From Verrucomicrobiales bacterium (GTDB taxonomy: Bacteria; Verrucomicrobiota; Verrucomicrobiia; Methylacidiphilales; JAAUTS01), in NCBI GenBank assembly GCA_031256975.1, contig JAIRPN010000015.1, positions 152,648-216,647 on the forward strand: a DNA stretch of 64,000 bases, written 5' to 3'. The position numbers and the translations under genes are program-made. The notes under the pieces were generated by a model. That model was given only the letters and a program-made list of their open reading frames with translations, searched no databases and had not been told where the DNA came from. This document shows, piece by piece, positions 1-64,000 of the stretch (its first letter is position 1; the number at the start of each line of letters is the position of its first letter).

Positions 1-729
1 CCGGGACGCAACGGCGATGCCCGCGACTCGGTCAACGATGCCGATTGGCAAACATTGGCCGGAAACGTGCAGTTCGCCATTGTCGGCTGCCGCTTGTTCA
101 AGGACCCGGCGGGAGATTACCAAGGCGACCCCGACGGCTCGACGGCCAAAGTCATCAACCAAGCCGTCAACGCCCTCGCCGCCGCCAACGGCCATGAAGA
201 ATTAAAGGACCCGCCCCTGGCATTCTGGGGCCATTCCGCCGGCGCCAACACCGCCGAGCGTTACGCCAACTATTTCCCCAAGCGCGTCATTAGCGTCGTC
301 TGCATCAAGGGCACTTGGGGGCCGGGCGGCTGGGACAATGCCAAAAAGGAAATCCCCTGGCTGCTGTGCATCGGCAAAAACGACAAACCCGACTGGGTGA
401 AAGCGGCACTGGATAATTACAATATTGGGCAAAAAAACCGCGCCGACTGGGTCCTGGCCCTGAATCCCAAGGAAGGGCACGAGGCAGGCAAAACCAAGCC
501 ACTGGCCTTGGCGTTTCTCGAGGAAACCATCAATCTGCGGCTCGACGACAGCGACAGCTTCGCCGCCACGCCCAAAATCCGCCGGTTGCCCGCTAACAGT
601 GACTGGCTGGGCGACCCCGCGACGCTAAACACCGCCCCTGCCAACAGTTTCACCGGCAAACGCGCCACCGCCACCTGGCTTCCCGGCGAATCCACCGCCA
701 AGGCTTGGGCGGAATATCTCAAGGAATAA
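1..729 (+). CDS. alpha/beta-hydrolase-like protein, 5'-truncated by window edge
   Basis: Frame 1 is open from base 1 with no upstream stop, so the listed ORF 55..729 is probably only the 3' part. It contains GHSAG (G-x-S-x-G nucleophile elbow). Confidence 0.5.
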   Translation, partial: PGRNGDARDSVNDADWQTLAGNVQFAIVGCRLFKDPAGDYQGDPDGSTAKVINQAVNALAAANGHEELKDPPLAFWGHSAGANTAERYANYFPKRVISVVCIKGTWGPGGWDNAKKEIPWLLCIGKNDKPDWVKAALDNYNIGQKNRADWVLALNPKEGHEAGKTKPLALAFLEETINLRLDDSDSFAATPKIRRLPANSDWLGDPATLNTAPANSFTGKRATATWLPGESTAKAWAEYLKE

Positions 730-850
730 AAATATATGAATTTTAGGATCAACCCTCCTTTATTTCCATAAATGAAATTTGTCGTGAACTGAAAAACTTC
801 GGATGGCAAAATTCAAACAATAACCCGAGGAAAATACCGGGCAAACATCT

Positions 851-1777
851 ATGACCTCCCGCAAAGTCTTTTTCTTCCATATTCCCAAAACTGCCGGGAC
901 CTCACTGATTGCCGCACTGTCGGAACAATTTGCTTACCGCAGGATCTGTCCTTTCGCCCACCAGCAGGAACTAAACGGCCAGAATTTTGATGAATTTAAA
1001 AAATGGGATTTTTTCAAGGGACACCTATCCCTGTCCATCCGCGAGTATCTGCCACAGCCCTTCGTATTCACCTTTTTAAGAGACCCGATCGAAAGAACAC
1101 TTTCGGAATACCACTACCTGACCAGTCAACAGTGGGAAGTGGAGGAGGAAATCAAAAACAAAAATTACCGCCCCAGGCCGGGGCATCCGTTTTACATGTA
1201 TCAGGGAATGGATTTCCTGGATTTGGTCAAAAAAAAACCCGCCTACATGAAGGAGCAATTTAATTTTCAGACCGGTTGCCTGGCAGATCTTGCATGGAAC
1301 AGCCAATCCTGGCTTCATGATGACGGGACAACTTCATTGAACAAGGCCCTTGACGAAATCCGGCGGCTGAATTTCGTCGGCTTGGTGGAACAAATGGAAA
1401 TTTCACGCATTTTGTTAAGCTGGCATCTGCAAATCCCCCCTCTTTGCTTCTCGCGGTTATTCAAGGTGAATCAGCACAAACCAGAAGGCGGATGGCAACA
1501 CCAATTCGCGAAGGTAAAACCAGAATTGGCACAACTGGCAGAACTGGATTACAAATTATATGCAGCAGCCAAAACACGCCTGAATAATGAGTGGGAAAAA
1601 TTCTGTAAAATAATAAACATCGACCCACGGAATGCGCCGGATGACGCAGGTTACGCGCAAATCAACACTTTCCTGAACCAACAGGCAAGGAAAGGCGCTT
1701 GGAAACATTCCGATCTGGCAAGCCGCTTGCGGCAATGGGAAAAAGCCATACGAACCTGCCGGAAGAAAATATGGTAA
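851..1777 (+). CDS. sulfotransferase family protein
   Basis: N-terminal FFHIPKTAGTS motif (PAPS-binding loop of the bacterial Sulfotransfer_2/3-type families). About half identical by eye to ORF 30009..30929. AT-richer than its neighbours. Confidence 0.7.
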   Translation: MTSRKVFFFHIPKTAGTSLIAALSEQFAYRRICPFAHQQELNGQNFDEFKKWDFFKGHLSLSIREYLPQPFVFTFLRDPIERTLSEYHYLTSQQWEVEEEIKNKNYRPRPGHPFYMYQGMDFLDLVKKKPAYMKEQFNFQTGCLADLAWNSQSWLHDDGTTSLNKALDEIRRLNFVGLVEQMEISRILLSWHLQIPPLCFSRLFKVNQHKPEGGWQHQFAKVKPELAQLAELDYKLYAAAKTRLNNEWEKFCKIINIDPRNAPDDAGYAQINTFLNQQARKGAWKHSDLASRLRQWEKAIRTCRKKIW

Positions 1778-1870
1778 AAATCCGTTGAATATCGGCAGCT
1801 GCTCATTCTCGATTCGTCATTAACACTTGATAATAATTGCCATCCGGTACCAGCCAATTATTATCCCAAT

Positions 1871-3160
1871 ATGAAACGCCTTCATCTGCTTGCCTGGTGT
1901 TGGCTGTTAGCGTCCGTCCTGCATGCCGCCTCAACGGCGACGCTAATTGCGCCATATGAAATCAAAAACGACAACCTGCAAATGACCCTGCCGAAAGGTT
2001 GCAAACTGGAAGTTGTCAGTGAAAAAGACGGCACACTCACCTGCATCATCGCCAACCAAGTCTTCCAAATCCCTGTCGACAAAACTGACTTTCAGCCAAT
2101 CGCAGCCGCAGATCCAAAATCCGCCAACAATCAACCGGAAGGCGCTGCCAAACCCGCTAACGACAAACCCTCAGCCACGTCCAAGCCAAGTTATTCCACC
2201 GCCACCAACCTCCTTGATCTTCCCGGGGCAACGCTAAATCCGAACGAACTGGCCTATTCCCTGCATTTCATGCATAACGACAAAAATGTTTGCTTCGCCG
2301 TGCCCAAAAATTACGACAAACACGCCGGCAACATTCCGGTCGGTATATATACCTACACGCTGGTCGACGGCACGGTGGCGGAGATTGAAATCATCACCGG
2401 CTGCCTGACCAAGGAACAAGCCGCCGCGATTGGCGAAGAATTGAAAACTCGATATCCCCTTGCCAAGGGAGAACAAATCACAGAATCCTTGAACCATGGA
2501 TTCCCGACGCTGTTTTGGTACGCGGCGGAAAAATCGGCGACGGAAAGATTGCTCGTGTCCTTCAACAATTTTATGCCGGATACCAAAAACCGGTTTCGCT
2601 ACAAACTCAAACTTTCCAACACGCGCGGCGCCGGACGGCTTAATGTTGAGGAGCCGGCGGATTATCTCGACTTGCAGTTTGCCATTAGCGTCCATGAAGT
2701 GCCGCGCGAATTGGCGCTGTCTTTGCAAAAAAGCCAGGCACTCCGGACCGACGCGGAAACCATCGATAAAATCATGCACCTGCGCAAACGCCTGGCGCTA
2801 AAGGCCGTCACCGAGACCAAGCCGAGTAAATGGCTGAGCGTGAGCCTGGGCAACAACGCACCGGAGGTATCGGCCAAAAAATTCTGCATTGCCAACGCCA
2901 AAAATGGCGACGACATGGCGGAAATTCATTGCATGACCGATTGGAGCGAACCGGAAAAAAATCTGTTGTGGATGGAAAACGCCTCCGTCTGGCTCGCTGC
3001 GTCGGACAAATCGAAATTCGCCCAGTCGCAATACATCAGCTTTTCCCCCGGCGTCCTGGAAATCGGCAGAACCACCGCCATACCCCTCGCCAGCTACATG
3101 GATGGCGGCTTATCCGCCGCTTATTTCCCCGTGGCACTAATTACACCGGAACGAAAATAG
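1871..3160 (+). CDS. secreted hypothetical protein
   Basis: 429-aa ORF with an N-terminal hydrophobic signal peptide (MKRLHLLAWCWLLASVLHAAS) and a low-complexity P/A/K/S linker. No recognisable catalytic motif. Confidence 0.6.
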   Translation: MKRLHLLAWCWLLASVLHAASTATLIAPYEIKNDNLQMTLPKGCKLEVVSEKDGTLTCIIANQVFQIPVDKTDFQPIAAADPKSANNQPEGAAKPANDKPSATSKPSYSTATNLLDLPGATLNPNELAYSLHFMHNDKNVCFAVPKNYDKHAGNIPVGIYTYTLVDGTVAEIEIITGCLTKEQAAAIGEELKTRYPLAKGEQITESLNHGFPTLFWYAAEKSATERLLVSFNNFMPDTKNRFRYKLKLSNTRGAGRLNVEEPADYLDLQFAISVHEVPRELALSLQKSQALRTDAETIDKIMHLRKRLALKAVTETKPSKWLSVSLGNNAPEVSAKKFCIANAKNGDDMAEIHCMTDWSEPEKNLLWMENASVWLAASDKSKFAQSQYISFSPGVLEIGRTTAIPLASYMDGGLSAAYFPVALITPERK

Positions 3161-7692: not shown

Positions 7693-7831
7693 TTGATTGG
7701 GGGGATGGACCGGAAACATAAATTGCCTTTTTTAGGAAAGGGCACGATCTGTTCCATGCCGGGTTCAGCGGACATCTTCAGCCTCTTGTTCCACTCAGGA
7801 AAATGAAGCCCAAGCCTCATATTCACTTCAA

Positions 7832-8779
7832 ATGTCATTCCGATTTGCCCTAGCGCTGCGCTACCAACAATGGCAGTCGCGCCGTCCGGTCACGTTCAAT
7901 GAGAAAGTGCGCTACAAGATGGCGCGCGACGGCAGCGCCTTGGCGACGCTGCTTAACGACAAAGCGCGTGTGAAAGAATATGTGCGCGAGCGCGTCGGCA
8001 GTGACGCACTGCCCGCATGTTATGGCATTTATGAACACGCGGCGCAAATAGATTGGGACGCCTTGCCGCGCGAATTCGCACTCAAGGTCAATCACGGTTC
8101 GGGCGGCGTCATCGTGGTTGCCGATGTCGCCAATGCCGGCGCTTTGCCGGTGCTGTCGCAAAAAAAATCGCTTCAATGGAGACGTTATGTCGTGCATCCC
8201 GACCGGTTTGAGAGAGCGCACGCCGGCAAACTGCTTGATGGCTGGCTGTGCCGGCGTTATGCGCAAAACCCGCGCAGGCCGATTGAACTTGCCTATCGCC
8301 ACATTCCGCCGCGCATCGTCGCCGAGGAATTTTTGCCTCACGTCACCAACGAACAACGCACGCTGCCGGCGCAGATCATGGTGCATTGCATCCACGGCGA
8401 ACCGGCGGAATATGTGCTCACACACCGCGCGGGTGACTTTGGCGAAACCGGCCAGCGCCGCTATCTTGTGGATGAATGGAATAACGGCTCGAGGGAATGG
8501 AACATCGCCGTGGACAGCGCACAGCAAATCACGCAACAATGCCGGCTGCTTTCACGCGGCACCGACATGGTGCGCGTGGACTGGCACTTGACGACGCGCG
8601 GCATTGTTTTCAACGAAATGACCAACTATCCCGCGGCCGGCACCATACCCTTCACCGGACATGCGTTTCTTGCGCCGCATGAACTCGACCGCAGGCTCGG
8701 CGCGCAGTGGCAGGTACCCGCCTCATATGCCGGAAACAAAGATACCGGATTGATTCAACCATCCCGGCATTTGAAATGA
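7832..8779 (+). CDS. ATP-grasp fold amidoligase family protein (TupA-like)
   Basis: N-terminal FNEKVRYKM...DKARVKEYV... and ALKVNHGSGGV pattern typical of TupA-like ATP-grasp proteins. GC-rich. Its stop overlaps the next gene's start (ATGA at 8776-8779). Confidence 0.6.
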   Translation: MSFRFALALRYQQWQSRRPVTFNEKVRYKMARDGSALATLLNDKARVKEYVRERVGSDALPACYGIYEHAAQIDWDALPREFALKVNHGSGGVIVVADVANAGALPVLSQKKSLQWRRYVVHPDRFERAHAGKLLDGWLCRRYAQNPRRPIELAYRHIPPRIVAEEFLPHVTNEQRTLPAQIMVHCIHGEPAEYVLTHRAGDFGETGQRRYLVDEWNNGSREWNIAVDSAQQITQQCRLLSRGTDMVRVDWHLTTRGIVFNEMTNYPAAGTIPFTGHAFLAPHELDRRLGAQWQVPASYAGNKDTGLIQPSRHLK

Positions 8780-10023
8780 AAAAATTGCTGCGCCTTGCCA
8801 TCGGCGCGCGCGCCGATTTCTCCATGCGTGTCGAGCTTATGGACATGCTCAACCAACGGCTTTGGCGGCGCACCGAAGGGCTGCTGGCGTGTTATCGCAG
8901 TTGTCGCACGCGCAAACTGCGATGCCAGTCGCTCATCGCCGTCACCGGCTCGCTCGGCAAAACCACCGCGACCCGCGCGCTCATGTGCGCGCTCAACCGG
9001 CAAACACCGGCCTGGATACACGAGGCCGACAACTGTTTCGCGCTCGTCGGCCTCAACATGCTGCGGCAATGTTTCCAGCCTTACGCCATCGTTGAAGTCG
9101 GCATCGGCAACGTCGGACAAATGGAACGCTACGCCAGGATGTTGCAACCGGACATCGTGGTGCTTACGGCGCTCGGCACCGATCATAGCAGGAATTTTGG
9201 CGACACGGGAAAACTCTGGCAGGAAAAACTGCGCCTGGTACAAAGCCTGCGCCCGGGCGGCGTTGCCGTGCTCAATGGCGACGACGAAAATGTGTTGCGT
9301 TTGGCGAAAGCCAGTGGCGGCATTAAAACGATTACCTACGGATTTTCAGCAAACTGCGATGTACACGCGAGGGATGTTGAAGTCACGCCAAATGGCACTT
9401 CATTTACCCTTGCAGGACGGCGCATACAAACCCGGCTCATTGGGAGCGAATCCGTGCGCGCGCTCCTTGTTGCCATCGCCGTTGGACGCCATGCCGGCAT
9501 TTCCTTGGATACCCTGCTCGAACGCCTCGCCACACTCACGCCGACACCGGGACGCATGCAGCCGATGTCCTTGGTCAACGGCGCCGTTGCAATATGCGAT
9601 GACTTCAAAGCCAGCGTTGAAACCGTGCGTGCCTCGCTTGCCGTGTTCGCGCAAATGCAAGCCGGACGCCGCATCGTCGTGCTCGGCGAAATCTTTCACC
9701 CGCCGCGCCCGCGCATCGCCAAATATCAGGACATCGCAAAACTCGCCGCTGAAACGGTCGGCCGCATCATCCTCATCGGCAAACGCGCGCAACTCTACAA
9801 GCGCGGCCTGGGTGATATACCGGTCAGTTCGGCAAACACCGTCGAAGAAGCCGCCGCGTTATTGCGCGCGGAACTGCAAGCCGGCGACGCGGTGTTGATC
9901 AAGGGGCGAGGCGAACACAAACTTTCACGCATCGCCCTTATGCTCGCCGGACGTAACGTGCAATGCCGCCTAGCCTTTTGCAAATACGAAAATGTGCTCT
10001 GCTCCGTTTGCCCAAAGCTATAA
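8776..10023 (+). CDS. Mur ligase family protein (MurF-like, lacking the N-terminal domain) with Cys-rich C-terminal tail
   Basis: P-loop AVTGSLGKTT, Mur-ligase middle and C-terminal domain pattern (LTALGTDH, PGRMQ, IKGRGEHKL). Start chosen at the ATG overlapping the upstream stop (ORF track start 8707). The tail is CRLAFCKYENVLCSVCPKL. Confidence 0.75.
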   Translation: MKKLLRLAIGARADFSMRVELMDMLNQRLWRRTEGLLACYRSCRTRKLRCQSLIAVTGSLGKTTATRALMCALNRQTPAWIHEADNCFALVGLNMLRQCFQPYAIVEVGIGNVGQMERYARMLQPDIVVLTALGTDHSRNFGDTGKLWQEKLRLVQSLRPGGVAVLNGDDENVLRLAKASGGIKTITYGFSANCDVHARDVEVTPNGTSFTLAGRRIQTRLIGSESVRALLVAIAVGRHAGISLDTLLERLATLTPTPGRMQPMSLVNGAVAICDDFKASVETVRASLAVFAQMQAGRRIVVLGEIFHPPRPRIAKYQDIAKLAAETVGRIILIGKRAQLYKRGLGDIPVSSANTVEEAAALLRAELQAGDAVLIKGRGEHKLSRIALMLAGRNVQCRLAFCKYENVLCSVCPKL

Positions 10024-10075
10024 GATTGACGATTTACGCCGCTGATGATGAACTTGCCATAAGCGGTTTTGCTGC

Positions 10076-10510
10076 ATGAAAAAAACTTTCCAAGACTTCA
10101 CCATTAGCGACGACAAGAAGCTGCTTCAATTCGATAAGATCATCGCCATGCTGCGGAACACCTATTGGGCCCGGCACCGGCCCGAAGAAGTGATCCGCCG
10201 CGCCAGCAAAAATTCCCTCTGCTTCGGCATTTACACCGCCCATGGCGAGCAAGTCGGCTTCGCCCGCGCGGTGACCGACCGGGCCACGGTTTACTGGCTC
10301 TGCGACGTGGTCATTGCGGAAACCCGGCGGAAGCAAGGCCTGGGCAAAGCCCTGGTGCAATTCATCACCGGCCACCCCAAATTGCAATCCATGACCGGCA
10401 TCCTCAGAACCGAGGACGCCCACGGCCTCTACGCGCAATACGGTTTCCTGCGCAATACCACCTTCATGCGCAGAGCCGTGGCACCCGCCAACGACCCGTT
10501 TCACCATTAG
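10076..10510 (+). CDS. GNAT family N-acetyltransferase
   Basis: 144-aa protein with acetyl-CoA binding motif RRKQGLGKALV. Confidence 0.75.
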   Translation: MKKTFQDFTISDDKKLLQFDKIIAMLRNTYWARHRPEEVIRRASKNSLCFGIYTAHGEQVGFARAVTDRATVYWLCDVVIAETRRKQGLGKALVQFITGHPKLQSMTGILRTEDAHGLYAQYGFLRNTTFMRRAVAPANDPFHH

Positions 10511-12244: not shown

Positions 12245-12275
12245 GTCGCTAATGGCAGGGTTCGCCATTAGCGAC
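12245..12275 (+). terminator. hairpin made of an inverted pair of the CGCTAATGGC motif, downstream of fumA
   Basis: GTCGCTAATGGC-aggg ttc-GCCATTAGCGAC, starting 14 nt after the fumA stop. No strong T-run follows. Confidence 0.5.
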
Positions 12276-15584: not shown

Positions 15585-15661
15585 GCTGGGAATATAGTTG
15601 CAACCCCGATTGTTAGTAAACTGTTTTCGGCGTGCCGGTGGAAATTCATGGCAATAAAAAA

Positions 15662-15690
15662 CCGCTAACGACGAAGTTCATCGTTAGCGG
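15662..15690 (-). terminator. rho-independent terminator of tsf, built from an inverted CGCTAAC pair
   Basis: On the minus strand: CCGCTAACGAtgaacttcgTCGTTAGCGG followed by TTTTTTATT, 19 nt after the tsf stop. Confidence 0.65.
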
Positions 15691-17098: not shown

Positions 17099-17357
17099 AT
17101 CAATTTCCTGATTTATGACCCGCTAACTGCGGGCTTCGCTTTCTAGCGAATAATTTTTTGTTGTTGTGCCCTTGCGGGCGTTTTTCCCTGAAACCTTTCA
17201 GAGAAGGGGAAAAGGCTACAGACGCCGAAGTTTTTCACAAGTACAAAGTAAAAATCCAATGACCACGAATGCCGGTTTTTCCTGCTTTGTCCACTTTTCC
17301 CGGATTTTCAGGCTTTTGTAACTACCTCGCCATTAGCGAATAACCGAAAATATCCTG

Positions 17358-29886: not shown

Positions 29887-30008
29887 CCACACCTGTTTAT
29901 ACCAATCGCCACATATAGATGCGGCGACGAACCTCAAGACGCGCCGTGTTGATCATGAAACAACCGGGATCAAAGTACAATCAGTCAAATTGTCGGCTTG
30001 CAAGATTC

Positions 30009-30929: not shown

Positions 30930-30948
30930 AAGACGTCACACAAATCAA

Positions 30949-33318: not shown

Positions 33319-33330
33319 AAGAACAGCGAG

Positions 33331-35258: not shown

Positions 35259-35289
35259 TCATACTCCTGCCCCCCCCAGACATTTTATA

Positions 35290-36315
35290 TTAACGCTTCT
35301 TTTTGCCACTTGGCATAATATTTATGCAAGTTATTCCCAAGAAAACCAATCGATAAATTCCACGTTTGGGGGTTATTTTTATCAATAGCAGATGACGGAT
35401 TACGTCATGCCATCTGGCAATCCGGTTTTTAGCAACGGCCTTCGCCAAGGCTGCCGTGATATTTTCATCCGATCCTCTCCACGGACTGTGACGAAAACTA
35501 TCCCAGTATGCCATCGCCAACCGGTGCTTCATGTCAAACAGCCACGGCTTCCGTTTCCGCCCGCTGTAATGGGCAATCCCCGGCCTCTCTTCGACTTCAC
35601 GCCACTGCGCATTACCGGATTTTATACTGCATAACTTGCATAAAAGTTCTTGCCCGGTCTGGATATTCCAACGCGGATGCAACAGCAATAAATCATTGCT
35701 GAACACCAAATTGAGCACGTCCTGATCGGAATAGCGTTCGGTAAATTTCGGAACCTCCATCAATTTCAGGCACTCTTCCACATAATGACGTTCACGGCAT
35801 TTTCGAAGATTCATGTACAAAACCCCGGAATTAAAGTAATACCGGATCTGTTCATACTTGCCCAGTCCGCGCCCCTCCACATGCCAGTCCCGCACAACAC
35901 CGACCGCCACTTGCGAGATGTCCTCCTGCCAGAGCAAAGCGAGATCATCCAAGGCCACCAAATCACAATCCAGGTAAATGCAACGGTCCAGTTCTGGCAA
36001 TAAGTCCGGGATCAAGATGCGGTAAAACGCATTGGCAGGGAGATAATGCCCGGTTGTCTTTCCCTCCAGAATCGGACGCTCCACCAAAACATCGTCGAGA
36101 CCAGCATTATAGCTGGCGGCAATATCACGGAGTTGCCGTATATTTTCAGTCGAAAGACTCTGCCGGTCACGCAAAAGATAAAAATGAAAGTTCTGGGGCT
36201 GCCCGGATGCACGCAGAATCGATAAAATCGCCACTCCGGCATGTACCGTGTAAGCATCATCTGGCGCCATTACCACGGCTATCTTTCCCGTCACCGGCCG
36301 TTCTGCTGTGTTCAT
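35290..36315 (-). CDS. glycosyltransferase family 8 (tandem paralog)
   Basis: YLDCDLVALDD and NSGVLYMNLRKCRE motifs. Collinear with 34236..35258. Confidence 0.85.
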   Translation of the reverse strand: MNTAERPVTGKIAVVMAPDDAYTVHAGVAILSILRASGQPQNFHFYLLRDRQSLSTENIRQLRDIAASYNAGLDDVLVERPILEGKTTGHYLPANAFYRILIPDLLPELDRCIYLDCDLVALDDLALLWQEDISQVAVGVVRDWHVEGRGLGKYEQIRYYFNSGVLYMNLRKCRERHYVEECLKLMEVPKFTERYSDQDVLNLVFSNDLLLLHPRWNIQTGQELLCKLCSIKSGNAQWREVEERPGIAHYSGRKRKPWLFDMKHRLAMAYWDSFRHSPWRGSDENITAALAKAVAKNRIARWHDVIRHLLLIKITPKRGIYRLVFLGITCINIMPSGKKKR

Positions 36316-37082
36316 TCTTTGGCGGAATTTCTATATTCGTAAAGCTTGGCATATTTTATAAACGTCGAAAACGCGGAAAAATAAGCCAGGTAAAAACCGG
36401 GAAATCCATCTAGGATTCCCAGTCGTAAAAAATACGCCCGGAAAAAACGCCAACAGGCATGCACCACGATTGACAATGCCGAAACTTTTTTGCCGTTTTG
36501 TTTCGCCCGTTGCAAAAAAAAGTCAGTAAAAAAATTGATTTTCCCGACATGACTGGAAATGGATTCGTGCGAATAATGCAGCAGATCGACCGTGAAACGG
36601 ATGGTTTGCCCATCGACCACAAAACAATCATGTTCCTCGGTGCCGCCCAGCCTGCCTTCGCCGTTTCTGAACAAGCGCAAAACCCTGTCCGGGTAATTAT
36701 CCCCATGCCTGATCCATCGCTGCATGAACCACAAACGACGGGAAAACCAAACGCCATTCACATGATCATTGGCATTATCCATGAACCGGAAAATCGCTGT
36801 TTTTAACTCTGGCGACACCACTTCATCGGCATCCAGACTCAATATCCAGGGTTGTGTCGCCTTGCCCAACGCGACACTTTTCTGGTCGCGCAAATTTTGA
36901 AACGGATGCTCGCTGACCACGGCCCCGAAAGATTTCGCCACCATCTCCGTGTCATCGGCACAATCATTGATCACCACCACGATTTCCGCAACCCAGTCCG
37001 CAACGCTGCCCAAAGATTGGGGTAAACGCTTCCCCTCGTTTCTGGCAATCATGACCAGTGAAATCGGCAACCTCTTGCTCAT
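36312..37082 (-). CDS. glycosyltransferase family 2 (WaaE/KdtX-like LPS core GT)
   Basis: ISLVMIARNEGKRLPQSL...LSLDADE pattern. 4-nt overlaps with both neighbours. Confidence 0.8.
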   Translation of the reverse strand: MSKRLPISLVMIARNEGKRLPQSLGSVADWVAEIVVVINDCADDTEMVAKSFGAVVSEHPFQNLRDQKSVALGKATQPWILSLDADEVVSPELKTAIFRFMDNANDHVNGVWFSRRLWFMQRWIRHGDNYPDRVLRLFRNGEGRLGGTEEHDCFVVDGQTIRFTVDLLHYSHESISSHVGKINFFTDFFLQRAKQNGKKVSALSIVVHACWRFFRAYFLRLGILDGFPGFYLAYFSAFSTFIKYAKLYEYRNSAKE

Positions 37083-38110
37083 ACCACCACTTCCTGCATC
37101 TTTTTGGCAAAGATCGCCCGCTCAACCGCTTCCATCGCCTGTTCCGGCTTGATGGAAGCCATGCAAGGTGACTGGTTATAGCATACGTGTGACTTCTTGG
37201 AGCATTCACACTCTTTCCCACGGATAGTTGTGTGCGGTTCGCCAACCGGCGCCCATCTCAAATAATCACTTGGCGCAAAAAAGGAAAGCGTGGGCGTTTG
37301 CAGGCCAACCGCAAAATGCAGCGGCCCGGTGTCCGCGCTCACGAACAGCTTCGCCCGCTGCAATATCGCCAAAAATAATTCCAAGTCATAAACAGGCGGA
37401 AGACAAGTAATACCCAAGTCCGGATTGGCAAGCGCCCGCAACGAGAGCTGCTCACGCTCACTGATGCCCGCCGAAAACATAAGGCGCAATCCCCTGCTTG
37501 CGGCTTTGATCGAAAATTCGCGCCAATATTCCAACGGCCATTCCTTTTTCAATTGCACCGAGGAGATGTGACACAGAATTGTGCCTTCCGGCAACAGTTC
37601 AGCCGCCTTCGCTTTCAAATCCGGGTTGGTATAAATTTCCAAACGCGTGTCCCTTGATCCGGTACCCATGCCCATGGCATCCAGAATCATCAGCTCGCGC
37701 AACCCCTCATAGTAAAGATCATAGTCTGGTTGTTCGGTCGTGTGATGATAACACCAGGATCGGCCCAAAAACCCGCGTGGTGCTTCCAATCCCCAACGCT
37801 CCTTGGCGCCGATCATGAAACTGGTCCAGGCGCCGCGGTCGTTACCAACAAAATCCAGCGATAAATCAAATTTCTCCGCACGCAACTGAGTCAACAACGG
37901 CATGGTCTTTTTTAGCTGCATCCTGCCCCGCTGGCGCGGGAAGCCCCAAACTTTGTCCAGCCAAGGAACATACTTCAACAGGGGCACGGCCTCTTCCGGT
38001 ATTAAAACATGCAATTCAGCCTGCGGAAACCGCTGCCTCAAGGCACGCAACATGGGTGTCGACACCACCACATCGCCCAGATATTTAAATTTGATGACTA
38101 ATATTTTCAA
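37079..38110 (-). CDS. glycosyltransferase family 9 (heptosyltransferase-like)
   Basis: MKILVIKFKYLGDVVVSTPMLRALRQRFPQAELHVL, the canonical GT9 N-terminus. Confidence 0.85.
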   Translation of the reverse strand: MKILVIKFKYLGDVVVSTPMLRALRQRFPQAELHVLIPEEAVPLLKYVPWLDKVWGFPRQRGRMQLKKTMPLLTQLRAEKFDLSLDFVGNDRGAWTSFMIGAKERWGLEAPRGFLGRSWCYHHTTEQPDYDLYYEGLRELMILDAMGMGTGSRDTRLEIYTNPDLKAKAAELLPEGTILCHISSVQLKKEWPLEYWREFSIKAASRGLRLMFSAGISEREQLSLRALANPDLGITCLPPVYDLELFLAILQRAKLFVSADTGPLHFAVGLQTPTLSFFAPSDYLRWAPVGEPHTTIRGKECECSKKSHVCYNQSPCMASIKPEQAMEAVERAIFAKKMQEVVV

Positions 38111-38145
38111 GTCTGTGCCGTTTTAAGTCGTATCTTGCCAAAAAT

Positions 38146-39213
38146 TTGGTAAAAGACAGCATAAATTCATCTATGGGGTCAGCGGACTTTTATCAGTGCA
38201 CCAGGCACAGTCGTAAAGTTTTTGTCGCGGACCTCGGCTTTTTGGGGGATACTGTCCATCTTTTCCCTGCCTTGCGGGAAATTCGCGACGCCTATCCGCA
38301 GGCCGAACTGCATGTCATGTCCTCCACCCATGTCATGGACCTGTTGCGCCTGCTTCCCTGGATTGACCGTGCCTGGGGTTACCCACGGTTTCCCAAATCC
38401 CCCCCCTGGCACAAAACATTGCCGATTATCAGGGCCTTGCGCCGGGAGAAATTCGATACTGTCATCAACCTGAACGGCTCCAACCGTTCAAGTTTTCTCA
38501 CCCGTTCCACCGGAGCCCGCCACCGCTTGGGCCGCATTCCGCAAACACCAGGCGGCGCGCTGTGGCCATGGTGCTTCACCCATACGGTTTCTGTTCCCTA
38601 TAACTCGGTGGAATCCTTCCGCCAGCGCTGGCTTTGCCTGCAACAGAGCGGTTTCCCGGTTAGCGTGCCGCGCTTTGATGTGACCATCCCGGCGGATGTC
38701 CGACAATCGGTTGACAAATTGCTCGACCATCAAGGCGGCTTCATTCATATCAGCCCGTTCACTACGCAGAACCACCGCGAACCACATCCGCAGGACTTGA
38801 TTGATTTTCTAAATACCCTGGCCAAGGAAACGCCGGCTGAAAAAGTCGTTATTAGCTGCGCCCCCAATCAACGGGAAACTTCGAAACTCGCGGAGATTCT
38901 GTCCGGTTTACAACAACCGCCATGGAAAATTTTCCAAGGCACGCTAACCACCATCCAAACCTGCGCCCTGATCGATCGGGCACGCGTGCACTTGGGCGGC
39001 GATTCCGGAGCCGTGCACATCGCCACCATGCTGGGAATCCCCAACCTGGCCTGGTTTCACGAAGGCTCGCGCCAATCAAACTGGCTGCCTCGCGCCGCCA
39101 ACGACCAGATCCTGTTTGTGCCGCGAGACGACAGCGGATTTTTGCGGGTCAATCCCGCCCGGTTGATTGAAGGCGTCCTCGCCAACCGCCAAGCGACACT
39201 CAATTCGACCTGA
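38146..39213 (+). CDS. glycosyltransferase family 9 (heptosyltransferase-like)
   Basis: VFVADLGFLGDTVHLFPALREIRDAYPQAELHVM and C-terminal GGDSGAVHIA. The start may be the ATG at 38173. Confidence 0.8.
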   Translation: MVKDSINSSMGSADFYQCTRHSRKVFVADLGFLGDTVHLFPALREIRDAYPQAELHVMSSTHVMDLLRLLPWIDRAWGYPRFPKSPPWHKTLPIIRALRREKFDTVINLNGSNRSSFLTRSTGARHRLGRIPQTPGGALWPWCFTHTVSVPYNSVESFRQRWLCLQQSGFPVSVPRFDVTIPADVRQSVDKLLDHQGGFIHISPFTTQNHREPHPQDLIDFLNTLAKETPAEKVVISCAPNQRETSKLAEILSGLQQPPWKIFQGTLTTIQTCALIDRARVHLGGDSGAVHIATMLGIPNLAWFHEGSRQSNWLPRAANDQILFVPRDDSGFLRVNPARLIEGVLANRQATLNST

Positions 39214-46152: not shown

Positions 46153-46965
46153 GTGCCTGAATTACCAGAAGTCGAAACCACCCGTCGCGGCATTGAACCG
46201 CACTTGAGCGGGCAGCATATCCTGAGCGTTAGCGTGCGCCAGACGCAATTACGTTGGCCAATTCCGGCCGAAATCATCCGTCTGAAAAACCAGCTGGTCA
46301 TTAGCGTCGGTCGCCGAGCCAAATACCTGCTGGTCGAGCTGCCCAAGGGCTGGATCATCATCCACCTCGGCATGAGCGGCACGATCCGCGTGCTGCCGGA
46401 AAAATTGCCGGCCGGAAAACACGACCACGTCGATCTCCACCTCTCCAGTGGCAAAGTATTGCGCTATACCGACCCGCGCCGCTTCGGTTGTTGGTTGTGG
46501 ACCATCAACGCACCCGCTAACCACAAGCTTCTGGCCAATCTCGGCCCCGAGCCACTAACCACGAACTTTTCCGCAGAATACCTGTTTCGCCAATCACGCG
46601 GCAAAAACACCTTGGTCAAACCTTGGCTGATGGACAACAAAGTCGTGGTCGGCGTCGGCAATATCTACGCCAGCGAATCATTATTCCGCGCAGGCATCTC
46701 GCCCAAGCGTCGCGCCAAGTCGCTAACCCCGGACGAATGCAAAAAAATCGTCATTAGCGTCAAAAAAGTGCTGGAACTGGCGATCAAAAACGGCGGCACC
46801 ACCATCAGTGACTTCCTCAGCGCCGAAGGCAAACCCGGTTATTTCGCCCAAAAACTGAAAGTCTACGACCGCGTCGGAGAGCCCTGTCAAAAATGCGGCA
46901 ACCCGGTTCAAAAACTGACCCAAGCCCAGCGCAGCACCTTTTTCTGCGCCCATTGCCAACGCTAA
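46153..46965 (+). CDS. mutM: formamidopyrimidine-DNA glycosylase
   Basis: N-terminal (M)[13 protein letters not shown]2TH region, C-terminal zinf finger CQKCGNPV...FFCAHCQ. GTG start. Confidence 0.95.
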
Positions 46966-51743: not shown

Positions 51744-51753
51744 CAATAAATTT

Positions 51754-53286: not shown

Positions 53287-53302
53287 TTTTACCATCAACA
53301 AT

Positions 53303-53337
53303 CAGGCACTAACGGTGAGACCCACCGTTAGCGCCTG
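53303..53337. terminator. bidirectional hairpin between purH and the convergent gene, built on the CTAACGGTG/CACCGTTAG motif
   Basis: CAGGCACTAACGGTG-agacc-CACCGTTAGCGCCTG, a 15-bp stem with one mismatch. Confidence 0.55.
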
Positions 53338-53352
53338 AACTGTTTTAAGTCT

Positions 53353-56291: not shown

Positions 56292-56829
56292 TCCTTCAGC
56301 TTCACTAAAAAAGCGCGACGCCCAACCGTCGCGCTTTTTTCTTGTGATGGGGGTGAGCGGTTGCGGCAAAAGTACCCTGGCCCGCGCGCTGGCGGAAAAG
56401 TTTTCCGGCATTTATCTGGAGGGTGATGATTTTCATTCTGCTGCCAACAAGGAAAAGATGTCCGCTGGAATCCCGCTCGATGACCAAGACCGAAGTTCGT
56501 GGTTGGCCTCGCTCAACACCGAGTTAAAAAAACACGCTAATGGCGAAACACCTGTTTTTCTCGCCGGTTCCGCGTTGAAACGGACTTACCGTGACCAGCT
56601 CACCGGAGGTTTACCGGCACCGCTAACGGTGATTTATCTCAAGGGTTCTTTCGAATTGATCCGTTCGCGGTTAGCGTCCCGCAGCGGGCATTTCATGCCT
56701 CCCGCCTTGTTGCAATCCCAGTTCGATATTCTGGAAGAACCTGAGGCGGCATTGGTGCTGGATGTCTCCACCCCGCTTGCCGGGCTGGTGCGGCAGGCCT
56801 GCTCGTTTATAGGCGGTAATGACCGATGA
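56281..56829 (+). CDS. gluconokinase
   Basis: Start at ATG 56281, an 11-nt overlap with gnd. [11 protein letters not shown]-loop followed by GDDFHS...NKEKM, typical of GntK/IdnK. Confidence 0.8.
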
Positions 56830-59519: not shown

Positions 59520-59522
59520 TTA

Positions 59523-60581
59523 ATGGCGATTTTTACCAACCGTGAAAAGGAATCAAAAATGAATGGCAACATCCCCTGCTGTCTGTGCGGCAAGTCGGAA
59601 ATTTCATTATTATCGGAACGGGATCGGCACGGAAAGCCGCTAACCACGGTGATTTGCACCGGTTGCGGCTTGGTGCGGCATCATCCGCTGCCAACCCCTG
59701 AAGAAGTGCGGCAGTATTACGAAAAGGATTACCGGCTGGATTACAAAAAGACACTTGCACCAAAACCAAGGCATATTTATCGCGCGGGTTTGGTGGCCGC
59801 GCAGCGGGTGAAGGCAATGAACGCATGGTTATCCGAGGCGCGCCATGTGCTGGATATCGGCGCCGGGGGCGGCGAGCTTTGTTATATGATGCAGGGCGCC
59901 AACCGCCAAGTCACCGGTATTGAGCCAAATCGCGGTTACGCGCTTCACGCGAAAGAAAAGCTGGGGATAAACATGGTCGTCGGTGATTATCAGACTTCTC
60001 CATTAGCGCCCAGTTCATTCGATTTAATCACCATGTTTCATGTGCTGGAACATATTCTGGAACCGTCGAAAATTTTACTCCAAGCCCGTGACTGGCTGAG
60101 ACCGGAAGGTCATTTGATCGTGGAAGTGCCCAATGTCGAGGCCTTGTGCGGATCGCCGAAAAACCGTTTCCATTTCGCCCATATTTATAATTTCAACCTG
60201 GCCACACTTGAGTCGCTCGGACAACGCGCGGGATTTTTCGTCAGAAACAGATATGTCGCCAATGACGGCGGCATTATCCGGGTGGTATTCCAAAAGACCT
60301 CGAAACTTTCGGAATTGGCGCCCGACCTGGGCTCCAATGCGAAAGGAATCGAATCCTTACTGCAAAATCACACGCCGTTGCGGCATTTGTTCAGCCATTA
60401 CCCGTATCTGCGTTTGTGGCGGAAAATCTTGCGCGGTTTTGACGAATGGACGACCGTCAGATCCACCGCTAATGGCGAGACTTTGCTGGGGTCAATCAAG
60501 CAGCAGCTTGAACAAACGGAACGTTTTCTGAACCGGCCCATGTCCGTCATCCGATCGGAACTGAGTCCGACCCGCCAATAA
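59523..60581 (+). CDS. class I SAM-dependent methyltransferase with N-terminal Cys4 zinc-ribbon
   Basis: CCLCG...CTGCG zinc-ribbon, VLDIGAGGGE motif I, and FDLITMFHVLEH. Confidence 0.8.
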   Translation: MAIFTNREKESKMNGNIPCCLCGKSEISLLSERDRHGKPLTTVICTGCGLVRHHPLPTPEEVRQYYEKDYRLDYKKTLAPKPRHIYRAGLVAAQRVKAMNAWLSEARHVLDIGAGGGELCYMMQGANRQVTGIEPNRGYALHAKEKLGINMVVGDYQTSPLAPSSFDLITMFHVLEHILEPSKILLQARDWLRPEGHLIVEVPNVEALCGSPKNRFHFAHIYNFNLATLESLGQRAGFFVRNRYVANDGGIIRVVFQKTSKLSELAPDLGSNAKGIESLLQNHTPLRHLFSHYPYLRLWRKILRGFDEWTTVRSTANGETLLGSIKQQLEQTERFLNRPMSVIRSELSPTRQ

Positions 60582-60619
60582 AAAAGCCGCTAATGACGAG
60601 TTCGTCATTAGCGGCTTTT
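60582..60619. terminator. perfect 18-bp-arm bidirectional terminator built from the CGCTAATGACG motif
   Basis: AAAAGCCGCTAATGACGA-gt-TCGTCATTAGCGGCTTTT, with an A-run and T-run on the two sides. It lies between the convergent methyltransferase and sodA genes. Confidence 0.8.
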
Positions 60620-62311: not shown

Positions 62312-62379
62312 CGGCAGCCTTGGTAAAAACGATTTATTATAATTGCAATTATTGATTGTTTTTACATGCTCATAGCTTT

Positions 62380-63378: not shown

Positions 63379-63389
63379 TTCACTGCAGG

Positions 63390-63422
63390 CGCTAATGACG
63401 AGATCGTCAACCGTCATTAGCG
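63390..63422 (+). terminator. hairpin from an inverted CGCTAATGACG pair
   Basis: CGCTAATGACG-agatcgtcaac-CGTCATTAGCG, starting 12 nt after the stop of the TIM-barrel gene. Confidence 0.5.
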
Positions 63423-63455
63423 TCCATCCCATTTCAAGCAAACAGGAACACACTT

Positions 63456-64000
63456 ATGTCAAATAACGTATTGAAAATCGGCATGGTTGGCGGCGGTGGC
63501 GGCGCGTTTATCGCCCAGCCGCACCAACGGGCAATCCACATGGACGGCACGCGGCGCGTGGTCGCGGCGGCCCTGAATCCCGATGCCAAGCGCGCCATTA
63601 GCGAGGCAAACGCCTGGCCTTATCCGCTCAAGGGTTATGAATCCTACGACCAGATGTTGTCCGAGCAAAAAAACCTGCCCAAGGAAGAACGGCTCGACTA
63701 CGTATTGATTGTCACCCCAAATTTCGTGCACTTTGACCCGGCATTCAAGGCCGTCGAACTCGGCATCCCCGTCATGTGCGAAAAACCCCTGTGCATGACC
63801 CTGGAGGAAGCCGACAAACTGGTCGCCGCCGTTAGCGCCAAAAAAGTGCCTTTCGCCGTCGCGCACACCTACCTCGGCCACTGGACCACCTTGTTCAGCC
63901 GGCACATCATCCGCAGCGGCCTGCTCGGCGACATCCGCTGGGTGGATTCCTCCTACATCCAGGGCTGGCTCGCCACCAAGTTGGAGGACTCCGACAACCA
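63456..64000 (+). CDS. Gfo/Idh/MocA family oxidoreductase, 3'-truncated by window edge
   Basis: Not in the ORF track because no stop is reached. ATG at 63456 gives MSNNVLKIGMVGGGGGAFIAQPH... with a Rossmann motif and a later CEKPL motif. The frame is open to base 64000. Confidence 0.8.
   Translation, partial: MSNNVLKIGMVGGGGGAFIAQPHQRAIHMDGTRRVVAAALNPDAKRAISEANAWPYPLKGYESYDQMLSEQKNLPKEERLDYVLIVTPNFVHFDPAFKAVELGIPVMCEKPLCMTLEEADKLVAAVSAKKVPFAVAHTYLGHWTTLFSRHIIRSGLLGDIRWVDSSYIQGWLATKLEDSDN

Follow-up and report, generated by a model that had tools for sequence, protein, structure and literature searches.

What is the short word TTAGCG, with its complement CGCTAA, doing at such high density in the genome of an uncultured member of the Verrucomicrobiales, of which one 64,000-nt stretch from a MAG (hereafter the window; GC content 53.4%) was analyzed? 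The core occurs 66 times as TTAGCG and 74 times as CGCTAA on the plus strand, 140 copies in 64 kb, and 126 copies (60+66) take the form RTTAGCG/CGCTAAY, 47 (29+18) the form CATTAGCG/CGCTAATG, and 33 (23+10) the form G[CT]CATTAGCG or its reverse complement. The counts of the core, of CATTAGCG and of the 10-mer given in a first-pass annotation of this DNA were thus reproduced to the digit. That annotation had read the word as resembling a DNA-uptake signal, and the present analysis supports this reading, every sequence-level prediction that could be tested having been borne out. In our judgment there is about an even chance that the word TCGCCRTTAGCGnC acts as a DNA-uptake specificity signal specific to this uncultured lineage, where it originated independently.

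The enrichment was compared with several background models, a check proposed at the outset, and it held under Markov models of orders 0 to 3 (M0-M3) and under synonymous-codon shuffling. The Markov models predict 17 to 33 copies of TTAGCG, 1.2 to 2.3 copies of CATTAGCG, and 0.1 to 0.2 copies each of GCCATTAGCG and GTCATTAGCG, which were observed 20 and 13 times, respectively; the 8-mer and 10-mer extensions lie 20 to more than 100-fold above expectation. The top outlier words in the window at k = 6, 7, and 8 were TTAGCG and its extensions, with z of 18.6, 21.3, and 29.1. Models of order 4 or higher come near the observed count (104.8 for TTAGCG under M4) because their sub-words consist of motif copies. 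When the protein and the per-gene codon usage were held fixed, the coding sequences were found to contain 115 copies of TTAGCG in comparison to 25.8±4.7 expected, 33 of CATTAGCG in comparison to 2.6, and 21 of G[CT]CATTAGCG in comparison to 0.9. Shuffles of synonymous codons and of codon order gave 18 to 26 copies of TTAGCG, and the codon-aware nulls were exceeded by z = 19 to 38, in agreement with the earlier view that selection acts at the level of DNA rather than protein.

The 10-mer core proposed previously stands as a motif but not in its length, for the conserved word covers 14 positions, from -6 to +7 relative to TTAGCG. Information is about zero beyond these positions; no longer dispersed repeat surrounds the copies, and the word is therefore not a REP or MITE. 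It is asymmetric, with information graded over 12 to 14 bases, TC[G/a][C/t][C/g]R-TTAGCG-nC, the consensus being T (68%), C (70%), G/a (70/28%), C/t (53/31%), C/g (57/24%), R (G 49%, A 41%), TTAGCG, n, and C (61%). The full word recurs about 2 times per kb in native genes and terminators. One-off transition variants after a correct flank were about 6-fold enriched (TTGGCG 14, TCAGCG 4).

Most copies (82%) lie inside genes and 18% (24 to 26 copies) are intergenic. The genic copies, described before as falling in different reading frames, fill all four frames that are free of stops, with 33 as xTT-AGC-G, 14 as TTA-GCG, 34 as xCG-CTA-A, and 32 as xxC-GCT-AA, a tally based on crude ORF calls of which two were later corrected, and the two stop-containing frames hold 3 copies, all at gene ends. 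The motif contains 34 of the 84 CTA codons and 14 of the 142 TTA codons. Density was 4.97 per kb in non-coding DNA in comparison to 1.94 per kb in coding DNA, a 2.6-fold difference (p = 7e-5).

The results also showed that the four atypical segments named as sparse in or devoid of copies (Table 1) carry 1 copy in 15.4 kb, versus 139 in the remaining 48.6 kb (binomial p = 1e-15), the bulk of the motif-poor 15.4 kb being a low-GC glycosyltransferase cluster. Among the positions where the encoded protein is compatible with the word, 112 of 579 (19.3%) carry it in core genes and 1 of 143 (0.7%) in island genes (p = 1e-10). The motif-poor segments are putatively acquired DNA; prs and the fumarase gene adjoin in the related locus L001, so that about 7700-10590 was inserted in the window lineage (or deleted in L001). 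Zero copies were counted in tsf-rpsB and in purM, as had been stated.

Inverted pairs in terminators, another feature noted at first pass, are present as terminator-type hairpins, of which there are five or six at gene 3' ends. The arm order of the intergenic inverted pairs is uniformly CGCTAA...TTAGCG, and T/A runs flank two of them. Close-range pairs are not in overall excess (19 gaps no longer than 60 nt versus 21 expected), and the terminator pairs are significant only given the small intergenic space.

Table 1. Motif-poor segments, inverted pairs and other sites in the 64-kb window
Feature	Positions	Strand	Details
Motif-free segment	730..1860		GC 0.45; sulfotransferase-family gene
Motif-free segment, normal GC	7700..10080		GC 0.58; TupA-like ATP-grasp and Mur-ligase-like genes
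Inverted pair GTCGCTAATGGC-AGGGTTC-GCCATTAGCGAC	12245..12275		12-bp hairpin, MFE -21.2 kcal/mol; just 3' of class I fumarate hydratase gene (10591-12231, +)
tsf terminator, inverted pair CCGCTAACGA...TCGTTAGCGG	15656..15690	-	followed by TTTTTT on the - strand
Intergenic copy upstream of rpsB	17121..17126	-	
Motif-free low-GC segment	24990..28200		GC 0.44; FkbM methyltransferase, GT2 and GT25 glycosyltransferases
Low-GC glycosyltransferase/sulfotransferase/heptosyltransferase cluster	29900..38600		GC 0.48; 1 copy in 8.7 kb
fpg (formamidopyrimidine-DNA glycosylase)	46153..46965	+	densest gene: 6 copies, 7.4 per kb
Hairpin, 17 bp	53302..53338		between purH (51739-53286, +) and convergent DUF5069 gene; arms are a perfect copy (TTAGCG at 53328) and a decayed copy (TTAGTG)
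Inverted pair, CGCTAA 56621 and TTAGCG 56671	56621..56676		long, imperfect hairpin; between convergent 6-phosphogluconate dehydrogenase and DUF1287 genes
Bidirectional terminator AAAAAA-GCCGCTAATGACGA-GT-TCGTCATTAGCGGC-TTTT	60580..60619		MFE -30.1 kcal/mol; between convergent genes 59523-60581 (+) and sodA/B-type 60639-61250 (-)
Inverted pair GGCGCTAATGACG...CGTCATTAGCGTC	63388..63424		hairpin 3' of gene 62356-63378 (+)

A comparison with related genomes, suggested together with the original claim, recovered the same architecture in sister species, while the letters there form a two-letter dialect and not the identical word. The architecture is shared, as TCACCG-TCAGCG-nC, by three or more related species with 79-85% RpsB identity, and the loci L001, L081, L082, and L085 (fumarase 86%, RpsB 79-85% identical) carry this sister dialect at 3.8 to 6.7 core copies per kb. 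The two dialects are mutually exclusive, flanked copies of TTAGCG versus TCAGCG numbering 54 versus 4 in the window and 0 versus 22 in L001, and they differ at two separated positions, -4 (A in the sister dialect, G in the window) and +1 (C and T, respectively). The orthologous tsf terminator and rpsB-upstream site are each spelled in their own dialect, both being made of TCAGCG in L085 (the latter in a small hairpin), and the conspecific contig L214 has a conventional terminator with one motif copy at tsf and the one-off TTGGCG upstream of rpsB. Most sites are not conserved in position between orthologues and are made by synonymous choices, e.g., GCT-AAC versus GCC-AAT, which indicates continuous turnover. 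A comparable word was absent from more distant Verrucomicrobiota with RpsB identity of 74% or less (L083, L084, L086-L089) and from a dozen fumarase loci. Set beside the DUS and USS, the sister-species dialects are the most uptake-sequence-like feature of all.

If the word serves DNA uptake, a DNA receptor of the competence apparatus, located at the surface or in the periplasm, with a type IV (pseudo)pilin-type protein as the most plausible candidate, would bind double-stranded DNA bearing the asymmetric 12-14-bp word in either orientation, and word-bearing fragments would be preferentially taken up. Homologous recombination of conspecific fragments would spread new copies, and this molecular drive would be countered by protein and codon constraints until the word stood at about one fifth of the protein-compatible positions in long-resident DNA and at more in non-coding DNA. 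Inverted pairs would come to serve as terminator stems, DNA gained recently would have no copies, and a shift of receptor preference (from A to G at -4 and from C to T at +1) in the lineage of the window may have caused copies to be replaced by the new dialect. Competence, the receptor, and the effect on uptake are the part of this reading that we infer; the genes of the 64-kb window include no competence, pilus, or DNA-uptake genes, and the literature searched described natural transformation for no member of the Verrucomicrobiota and contained no counterpart of this word. Words so frequent in native DNA and with a two-letter variant in close relatives have so far been reported solely as uptake signals, in the Neisseria and Haemophilus families. 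Dialects aside, these features would result from any process by which a DNA word is driven into resident sequence, and the pattern is therefore a signature rather than a demonstration; repair-linked conversion and selection for a chromosomal binding site are examples of such processes.

We regard it as evenly balanced whether the candidate signal plays the part that the DUS plays in Neisseriaceae and the USS in Pasteurellaceae. The DUS consists of GCCGTCTGAA and 12-mer dialects, with the minor pilin ComP as receptor, and the USS is of the AAGTGCGGT and ACAAGCGGT types. Similar to the USS, the verrucomicrobial word has the majority of its copies inside genes, a comparable density, strand symmetry, terminator inverted pairs, and, across sister clades, two dialects that are close to each other; it differs in its unrelated sequence, its phylum, and its lack of AT-rich, helically phased flanks (information about zero beyond +7). 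Similar to the DUS (PMC1852404; bioRxiv 10.1101/2025.10.24.684340), it is a short asymmetric word whose core is strongly conserved and whose flanks are less so, present about 1-2 times per kb, equal on both strands, intragenic in all stop-free frames, enriched between genes with inverted pairs as terminator stems there, depleted from horizontally acquired DNA, and split into species-group dialects 1-3 letters apart. Observed/expected ratios of DUS 10-mers are 15-65, the range into which the excess of the verrucomicrobial word also falls. Predicted terminators hold about half of the DUES (bioRxiv 10.1101/2025.10.24.684340), in comparison to the 18% of verrucomicrobial copies that are intergenic. 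Its sequence is unrelated to the DUS and has no CTG core, and its host belongs to Verrucomicrobiota rather than Betaproteobacteria.

It seems to us rather unlikely, though worth serious attention, that the word is hyper-abundant for reasons other than uptake, as HIP1 of cyanobacteria may be, owing to an abundant nucleoid-associated or "architectural" protein or to repair or modification which turns near-matches into matches, in which case the dialect switch would be a changed specificity of that protein. Any drive or selection at the DNA level would be expected to fill four frames, treat both strands alike, leave islands depleted, and give rise to dialects; competence genes are absent from the 64 kb of the window, and the C versus T difference at +1 may be a product of methylated-C deamination. 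HIP1, the highly iterated palindrome GCGATCGC, contains a methyltransferase site and has a function that is unknown or debated; like the present word it is hyper-abundant, short, intragenic in several frames, and lineage-variable. HIP-type elements and typical methyltransferase sites are short palindromes, HIP1 being a perfect one of 8 bp, whereas the verrucomicrobial word is non-palindromic and spans 12-14 bp with graded information. Deamination alone does not explain dialects which differ at -4 as well as +1, and since the two dialects mostly occupy non-homologous positions, the window copies are not simply decayed TCAGCG sites. Moreover, the enrichment of the 8- to 10-mers far exceeds what very-short-patch-type repair is known to achieve, and we know of no nucleoid protein that requires about 2 exact intragenic sites per kb.

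Very improbable is a polar signal of the Chi or KOPS kind, which proteins such as RecBCD/AddAB or FtsK would recognize and which would label DNA as self and direct recombination or segregation. Chi (GCTGGTGG in E. coli, AGCGG in B. subtilis) is likewise dense, tolerated inside genes, over-represented in core DNA, depleted in foreign DNA, and lineage-specific; the core of the present word contains AGCG, with the B. subtilis pentamer in 32% of copies, and the most stringent flank matches in the window are weakly asymmetric (47 on the plus strand versus 27 on the minus strand, p = 0.027 uncorrected). GC skew is negative over the whole window, which places it within one replichore, yet the 66 versus 74 division of the core (p = 0.55) confirms the lack of polarity claimed earlier, and the G-rich strand is not consistently favored in L001, L081, L082, and L085 either, these data covering 64 kb in the window dialect and 44 kb in that of the sister species, short of replichore scale. 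Chi is co-oriented with replication, measures 5-8 nt, and does not form paired terminator stems; a 14-bp footprint, inverted pairs in terminators, and about 2-7 copies per kb would be atypical of Chi and KOPS alike.

That the word is a side effect of bias in codons, dipeptides, or oligonucleotides, or consists of copies of a longer REP/MITE-type repeat, is exceedingly improbable: the near agreement of the Markov models of order 4 or higher would favor it, but these are trained on the motif's own sub-words, and the codon shuffles, the about equal use of four frames and both strands, and the flanks lacking information refute it. REP/BIME elements share with the word a dispersed distribution and, for some copies, hairpins between genes, whereas REPs are imperfect palindromes of 20-40 nt restricted to intergenic DNA and 82% of the verrucomicrobial copies lie singly inside genes, 14 nt long and set in random flanks, no copy needing a TRF-type or long-repeat structure as explanation.

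The chance that a modified C in TCAGCG was miscalled as T in a long-read assembly, the window being truly of the sister dialect, is negligible: one core position does differ between the dialects as C to T and a 323-kb metagenomic contig is the source of the window, but the dialects also differ at -4, and the artefact is refuted by L214, an independent JGI assembly from another sample (97-98.6% identical) with TTAGCG at the window's sites, and by L001, which encodes Asn (AAT/AAC) and not Asp at GCT-AAC sites, so that the A is genuine.

The copy counts of the first-pass annotation were reproduced to the digit, with 66 occurrences of TTAGCG and 74 of CGCTAA on the + strand (140 copies), and the longer forms RTTAGCG/CGCTAAY, CATTAGCG/CGCTAATG and G[CT]CATTAGCG plus its complement were found 126, 47 and 33 times in the window, respectively. 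The GC content of the window is 53.4%, and the density of the core is 2.19/kb, or 1.8/kb if at least 5 of the 7 flank positions are required to match. The excess, first judged against a uniform model, was upheld by higher-order backgrounds: Markov models of order 0 to 3 predicted 17 to 33 copies of TTAGCG in comparison to the 140 observed, 1.2 to 2.3 copies of CATTAGCG, and 0.1 to 0.2 copies each of GCCATTAGCG and GTCATTAGCG, which were observed 20 and 13 times, respectively. The word and its extensions were the top outliers of the entire window at k = 6, 7 and 8, and the 8-10-mers lay 20 to more than 100 times above expectation under these Markov models and under codon shuffling. Models of order 4 or higher come near the observed counts, an agreement which is circular because the sub-words used for training are dominated by the motif itself; gene-aware null models were therefore used, in which synonymous codons were shuffled within each gene while the protein and its codon usage were kept. 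Under this shuffle, 25.8±4.7 copies of TTAGCG were expected in coding sequence in comparison to 115 observed, 2.6 in comparison to 33 for CATTAGCG, and 0.9 in comparison to 21 for the 10-mer G[CT]CATTAGCG; shuffling of codon order gave expectations that were lower still. The maximum z-score per 13 kb reached similar values in a few of the 117 control loci, so that this statistic alone does not discriminate the window from the controls, and it is the dispersed four-frame pattern which does. The motif finding holds up: its statistics are overwhelming, and its pattern follows phylogeny.

Alignment of all 140 copies in one orientation gave a word of 14 positions, TCGCCRTTAGCGnC, numbered from -6 to +7: T (68%) at -6, C (70%) at -5, G or a (70% and 28%) at -4, C or t (53% and 31%) at -3, C or g (57% and 24%) at -2 and R (G 49%, A 41%) at -1, then TTAGCG, any base at +6 and C (61%) at +7. 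The 10-mer core proposed in the first-pass annotation is thus enriched as claimed, but is too short as the full length of the word, which has 14 conserved positions. Just beyond these positions the information content of the flank logo falls to about 0 bits, so the copies are not pieces of some longer REP or MITE element, and the word is non-palindromic and not self-complementary. The only other core variants enriched (about 6 times) behind the correct flank were TTGGCG with 14 copies and TCAGCG with 4; both are transition one-offs, as expected if mutation creates and destroys sites. As the annotation had noticed, the copies lie within genes in different reading frames, all four stop-free frames being used to a similar extent, namely xTT-AGC-G (33 copies, read as Ile/Val-Ser), TTA-GCG (14, Leu-Ala), xCG-CTA-A (34, Leu) and xxC-GCT-AA (32, Ala-Asn), and the frames which create TAG or TAA account for 3 copies, located at gene ends. 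The use of otherwise uncommon Leu codons was borne out for CTA, since, of 84 CTA codons, 34 owe their presence solely to the motif.

Strand polarity was absent as first described (66 copies on the + strand in comparison to 74 on the - strand, p=0.55), GC skew being negative over the full window; the strictest flank filter alone gave a nominal asymmetry of 47 to 27 (p=0.027, uncorrected), and no consistent strand bias was seen in the related loci (64 kb of window and 44 kb of relatives examined). With respect to transcription, TTAGCG was found 48 times on the coding strand and 66 times on the template strand, and an RNA-level signal was rejected on these counts. The copies showed no regular spacing in native DNA, the spacing being random with a CV of 1.05. 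At least one copy was present in 39 of the 61 window genes, and tsf, rpsB and purM had 0 copies each, in agreement with the initial reading. The densest gene was the DNA-repair gene fpg (46153-46965), with 6 copies or 7.4/kb, and rmuC had 2.6/kb; the density in fpg, a single gene only, recalls the debated genome-maintenance bias of the uptake signals of Neisseriaceae (DUS) and Pasteurellaceae (USS). Two ORFs on the - strand, 63459-63905 and 10034-10507, had no Pfam match and, when translated, resemble GC-rich DNA read in antisense; neither is likely to be a gene, and a few frame assignments of the motif are uncertain for this reason.

The depletion in compositionally atypical segments was confirmed, with 1 copy in the 15.4 kb of segments 730-1860, 7700-10080, 24990-28200 and 29900-38600 in comparison to 139 copies in the remaining 48.6 kb (binomial p=1e-15). 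Composition is not the cause, as shown by the protein-compatible positions, i.e., those at which synonymous codons could supply the word without altering the protein: in the core the word is carried by 112 of 579 (19.3%), in comparison to 1 of 143 (0.7%) in the islands (Fisher p=1e-10). Three of the four segments are low in GC and encode sulfotransferases, an FkbM-type methyltransferase and glycosyltransferases of families GT2, GT8, GT9 and GT25, and they are probably a locus for LPS or polysaccharide, a type of cluster often exchanged horizontally. The low-GC cluster at 24990-38110 (GC 0.40-0.52) is split at 28045-29886 by an ABC-transporter gene in which the motif has its normal density. The fourth segment, 7700-10080, has normal GC (0.58) and carries TupA-like ATP-grasp and Mur-ligase-like genes. 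The genes prs and fumarase are neighbours in L001, a locus from a related genome (1791-1871), and lie about 2.9 kb apart in the window (7700-10590), which indicates an insertion in the window lineage or a deletion in L001. From 7700 no copy occurs before 10104, where the doubtful antisense ORF lies, although GC is normal, and the motif thus flags an island which composition alone would miss. Two further low-GC genes were observed. A small PD-(D/E)XK (PDDEXK_3) nuclease gene at 51341-51742, with GC 0.44 and 0 copies, follows purM in the purine operon and extends over the start of purH, and it has the look of a selfish or defence gene that was inserted there. At 48002-49920, a low-GC (0.42) ORF with a weak UDG-superfamily match adjoins a WYL/WCX-domain regulator, and the two could form a small module for defence or repair.

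Of the copies, 82% are intragenic, and the density was 4.97/kb in non-coding in comparison to 1.94/kb in coding DNA (p=7e-5). The inverted pairs which had been noticed in terminators were recovered as strong hairpins, five or six in number, at the 3' ends of genes: the five intergenic pairs have one common arm order, CGCTAA ... TTAGCG, and one arm of the sixth hairpin-forming pair has decayed. A within-species polymorphism was observed at the tsf terminator between the window (15683-15685) and L214, a conspecific contig (1755-1799). In L214, the tsf end has a 44-nt terminator of the conventional GC-hairpin/T-run type, and one motif copy comes after it; the window is without those 44 nt, and the new junction creates the second, inverted copy. 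Scans of the window for tRNA genes and Rfam families gave no matches.

Coordinates of hairpins formed by inverted motif pairs, and start coordinates of all core copies, in the window
Feature	Position	Location or context
Hairpin	12245-12275	3' of fumarase
Hairpin	15662-15690	3' of tsf; then T6 on - strand
Hairpin	53302-53338	3' of purH
Hairpin	56621-56676	Gene 3' end
Hairpin	60586-60615	Between convergent genes; flanks A6 and T4
Hairpin	63388-63424	Gene 3' end
TTAGCG, + strand	290, 1907, 2685, 3642, 3918, 4177, 4703, 4914, 5034, 5921, 6621, 7589, 10104, 10507, 12268, 12715, 14743, 15684, 17333, 17438, 18365, 19439, 19631, 19964, 21683, 23028, 24270, 24831, 28952, 29210, 31703, 38660, 39532, 39819, 40054, 41433, 41532, 42611, 42907, 43784, 44301, 44504, 44814, 45484, 46134, 46229, 46301, 46754, 48893, 49027, 49655, 52505, 53328, 55180, 55486, 56130, 56671, 57078, 59043, 60003, 60608, 62280, 62308, 63417, 63598, 63832	
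CGCTAA on + strand (motif on - strand)	591, 623, 1941, 2155, 2232, 2796, 4526, 4559, 5004, 5350, 5650, 5700, 7068, 7409, 7437, 11652, 11738, 12247, 12809, 13347, 13856, 14723, 15549, 15663, 17121, 18087, 18459, 18873, 19076, 19103, 20754, 22356, 22540, 23224, 24143, 24149, 24660, 28235, 38942, 40166, 43113, 43581, 44409, 44771, 45100, 45268, 45905, 45985, 46515, 46721, 46960, 48042, 48135, 49862, 52541, 52818, 53001, 53583, 55772, 56535, 56621, 57007, 57338, 58175, 58674, 58908, 59058, 59638, 60467, 60588, 61686, 61998, 62511, 63390	

The conspecific contig L214 (3.2 kb, from another JGI sample) is 97-98.6% identical to the window and carries TTAGCG at the same sites; upstream of rpsB it has TTGGCG where the window has TTAGCG, and motif sites turn over within the species. 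Four loci from close relatives were compared, L001 (13.5 kb, fumarase 86% identical to the window), L081 (7.3 kb, RpsB 85%), L085 (4.1 kb, RpsB 80%) and L082 (18.9 kb, RpsB 79%), which represent at least three species since the three RpsB sequences differ. Enrichment of TTAGCG was absent in all four, and all four were enriched for TCACCG-TCAGCG-nC in an identical architecture, with 3.8-6.7 core copies/kb and 8-10-mers such as ACCGTCAG, CGTCAGCG and TCACCGTCAG at 7 to about 100 times expectation. The dialect of the window differs from that of the sisters at -4 (G in comparison to A), +1 (T in comparison to C) and -1 (R in comparison to G). The two dialects are mutually exclusive: correctly flanked TTAGCG and TCAGCG numbered 54 and 4 in the window, 0 and 22 in L001, and 0 and 21 in L082, respectively. 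Orthologous sites are each written in their own dialect, as at the tsf terminator (CCGCTAACGATGAACTTCGTCGTTAGCGG in the window, AACCGCTGACGGTGAAACTCACTGTCAGCGGTT in L085) and upstream of rpsB (...CCCGCAGTTAGCGGGTCATAAAT and ...CCCGCTGACCATCAGCGGGTCATAAAT, respectively). In the prs and fumarase orthologues (82-83% nucleotide identity), the majority of sites are not common to the window and L001 and arise from synonymous choices, e.g., GCT-AAC in the window and GCC-AAT in L001, and just two or three coincide and show dialect substitution. TTAGCG is probably the derived dialect, given that the nearest relative, L081, and two further ones have TCAGCG. No comparable word was found in L083, L084 and L086-L089 (RpsB 72-74% identical) or in the dozen further Verrucomicrobiota screened for over-represented words, and TTAGCG was not enriched in any of 80 fumarase loci; the fumarase protein is too conserved, and these loci are mostly from other phyla and serve as negative controls, only L001 being a close relative. 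A scan of JGI metagenome contigs for strict inverted pairs in the window dialect gave 4 isolated hairpins with no surrounding enrichment, a weak result as the source contig was missed too, and a single 14-mer scan of viral contigs gave 120 single chance matches, none enriched, from which we learned that collection scans for the word need about 20 or more specified bases.

The Pfam annotation of the window comprises common housekeeping genes (prs, fumarase, tsf-rpsB, lpxK, a fabV-type enoyl reductase, adk, rmuC, fpg, purM, purH, gnd and sod), together with genes of families frequent in the Planctomycetes-Verrucomicrobia-Chlamydiae (PVC) group, e.g., 3-keto-disaccharide hydrolase and GFO/IDH/MocA. 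The window RpsB is 100% identical to NCBI MDR0533991.1, '30S ribosomal protein S2 [Verrucomicrobiales bacterium]' from a MAG, where it is encoded on a contig of 323 kb, and the best protein matches are Verrucomicrobiales MAGs. None of the 61 genes in the 64-kb window encodes competence machinery (type IV pilus/secretin, ComEA, ComEC or DprA) or a receptor. Directly 3' of tsf, L085 (3732-4100) encodes a protein that begins with a prepilin-type N-terminus (NHGFSLIEIVFSLALL) and is truncated at the contig edge; in the window an OprB-family porin takes this place. This unspecific feature says no more than that the clade has pilin-like proteins.

Uptake sequences have been described as confined to two proteobacterial families (PMC13020248; bioRxiv 10.1101/2025.10.24.684340; 2025-2026). 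The signature features of DUS and USS (PMC1852404; PMC13020248; bioRxiv 10.1101/2025.10.24.684340), on some of which the annotation had based its suggestion, are each seen here: density, occurrence on both strands, use of several frames, intergenic and terminator excess, island depletion and dialects. The motif shares the short-word abundance of the class (9-12 nt, about 1/kb). DUS proper, however, derives from GCCGTCTGAA, has an essential CTG core, a Neisseriaceae host and the ComP receptor, and the motif consensus is unrelated and without CTG; USS proper has the core AAGTGCGGT or ACAAGCGGT with AT-rich flanks in Pasteurellaceae, from which the motif consensus differs, with no information beyond +7. 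Judged by sequence, the motif resembles DUS and USS in each testable respect and is a member of neither sequence family, its host being verrucomicrobial, and what would be new is the same phenomenon in another phylum, with another sequence, two dialects and presumably another receptor.

We propose that the word may be a DNA-uptake specificity signal kept by biased uptake and homologous recombination, a reading to which we give about an even chance. It is suggested by an asymmetric 12-14-bp word at about 2 copies/kb with 20 to more than 100-fold enrichment of 8-10-mers and strand symmetry, by its presence in all stop-free frames, paid for with rare codons, by the intergenic excess with inverted pairs as terminator stems, and by absence from acquired DNA and few-letter dialects in sister species. 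Biased uptake with homologous recombination would act as a molecular drive opposed by coding constraints, and where the dialect changed, the preference of the receptor would have shifted. More tentatively, at a little under an even chance, the uncultured verrucomicrobial clade (family or genus level) could be naturally competent and tell self from foreign DNA by its own uptake signal and a non-ComP receptor; uptake sequences would then have evolved independently in a third system, the first outside Proteobacteria, with two dialects already as a would-be exchange barrier between sister species. Our literature searches found no report of natural transformation or uptake sequences in Verrucomicrobiota and no description of the word or a verrucomicrobial equivalent, the search for the word itself giving primer noise only.

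The main rival is a HIP1-like hyper-abundant word of other function, maintained by sequence-specific repair or modification or by an abundant protein that binds the chromosome, and its expected sequence signature is almost that of an uptake signal. We regard it as unlikely, though deserving of weight; what speaks against it is the length, asymmetry and graded information of the word, in comparison to the perfect palindrome of about 8 bp in HIP1, together with dialects that differ at two positions apart from each other and sites that mostly lack a positional counterpart in the other dialect. A polar signal like Chi or KOPS is very improbable, as these are strongly co-oriented with replication whereas the motif is unpolar at the scale of the window (66 to 74) and in the related loci. 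Codon or dipeptide bias and REP or MITE elements are scarcely credible, being refuted by the frames, the flank logo and the codon shuffles, and REP and MITE copies share a unit of more than 20 nt and are mostly extragenic, unlike a motif of 14 positions with predominantly intragenic copies. A sequencing artefact, whether from assembly or from methylation-induced base calling, has a negligible chance, refuted by TTAGCG at the same sites in L214 and by the window-L001 orthologue comparison.

If the uptake-signal reading is true, a third system, unrelated in sequence and from another phylum, would mean that sequence-biased DNA uptake evolves repeatedly, and it would provide an independent test for the debate on molecular drive and selection. 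The word would also be a bioinformatic marker of natural competence in an uncultured, environmentally widespread phylum, and a barcode for contig binning and for spotting horizontally acquired DNA in these MAGs, motif-free segments marking islands in the window. A genetic tool for a hard-to-manipulate phylum would follow from adding the motif to transforming DNA. If the word is not an uptake signal, an asymmetric 14-mer at a fifth of permissible positions which changes dialect between species is a still unexplained genome-wide constraint.

Several other repeated words were observed. The palindrome TGTACA is about 3.3 times over-represented in the window (42 strand-counts in comparison to 12.6 expected), with 21 sites (e.g., 9360, 10994, 23106, 23121, 33171 and 33216), 8 of which fall in the atypical segments, unlike the motif. 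TGTACA is enriched in L082 and L087 too, and TGCGCA in several related loci, and both could be methylation- or repair-related words. Besides its TCAGCG dialect, L081 (7.3 kb) has a second repeated word, CTCCGCGTCTC / TCCGCGTCTC, with 5 copies in comparison to about 0 expected. In two Paludibacter MAG loci, L024 and L028, CATATAAG occurs in 21 copies in 12 kb and CCGGAGGG in 12 copies in 13 kb, with very high z-scores, and these words are unrelated to the motif finding.
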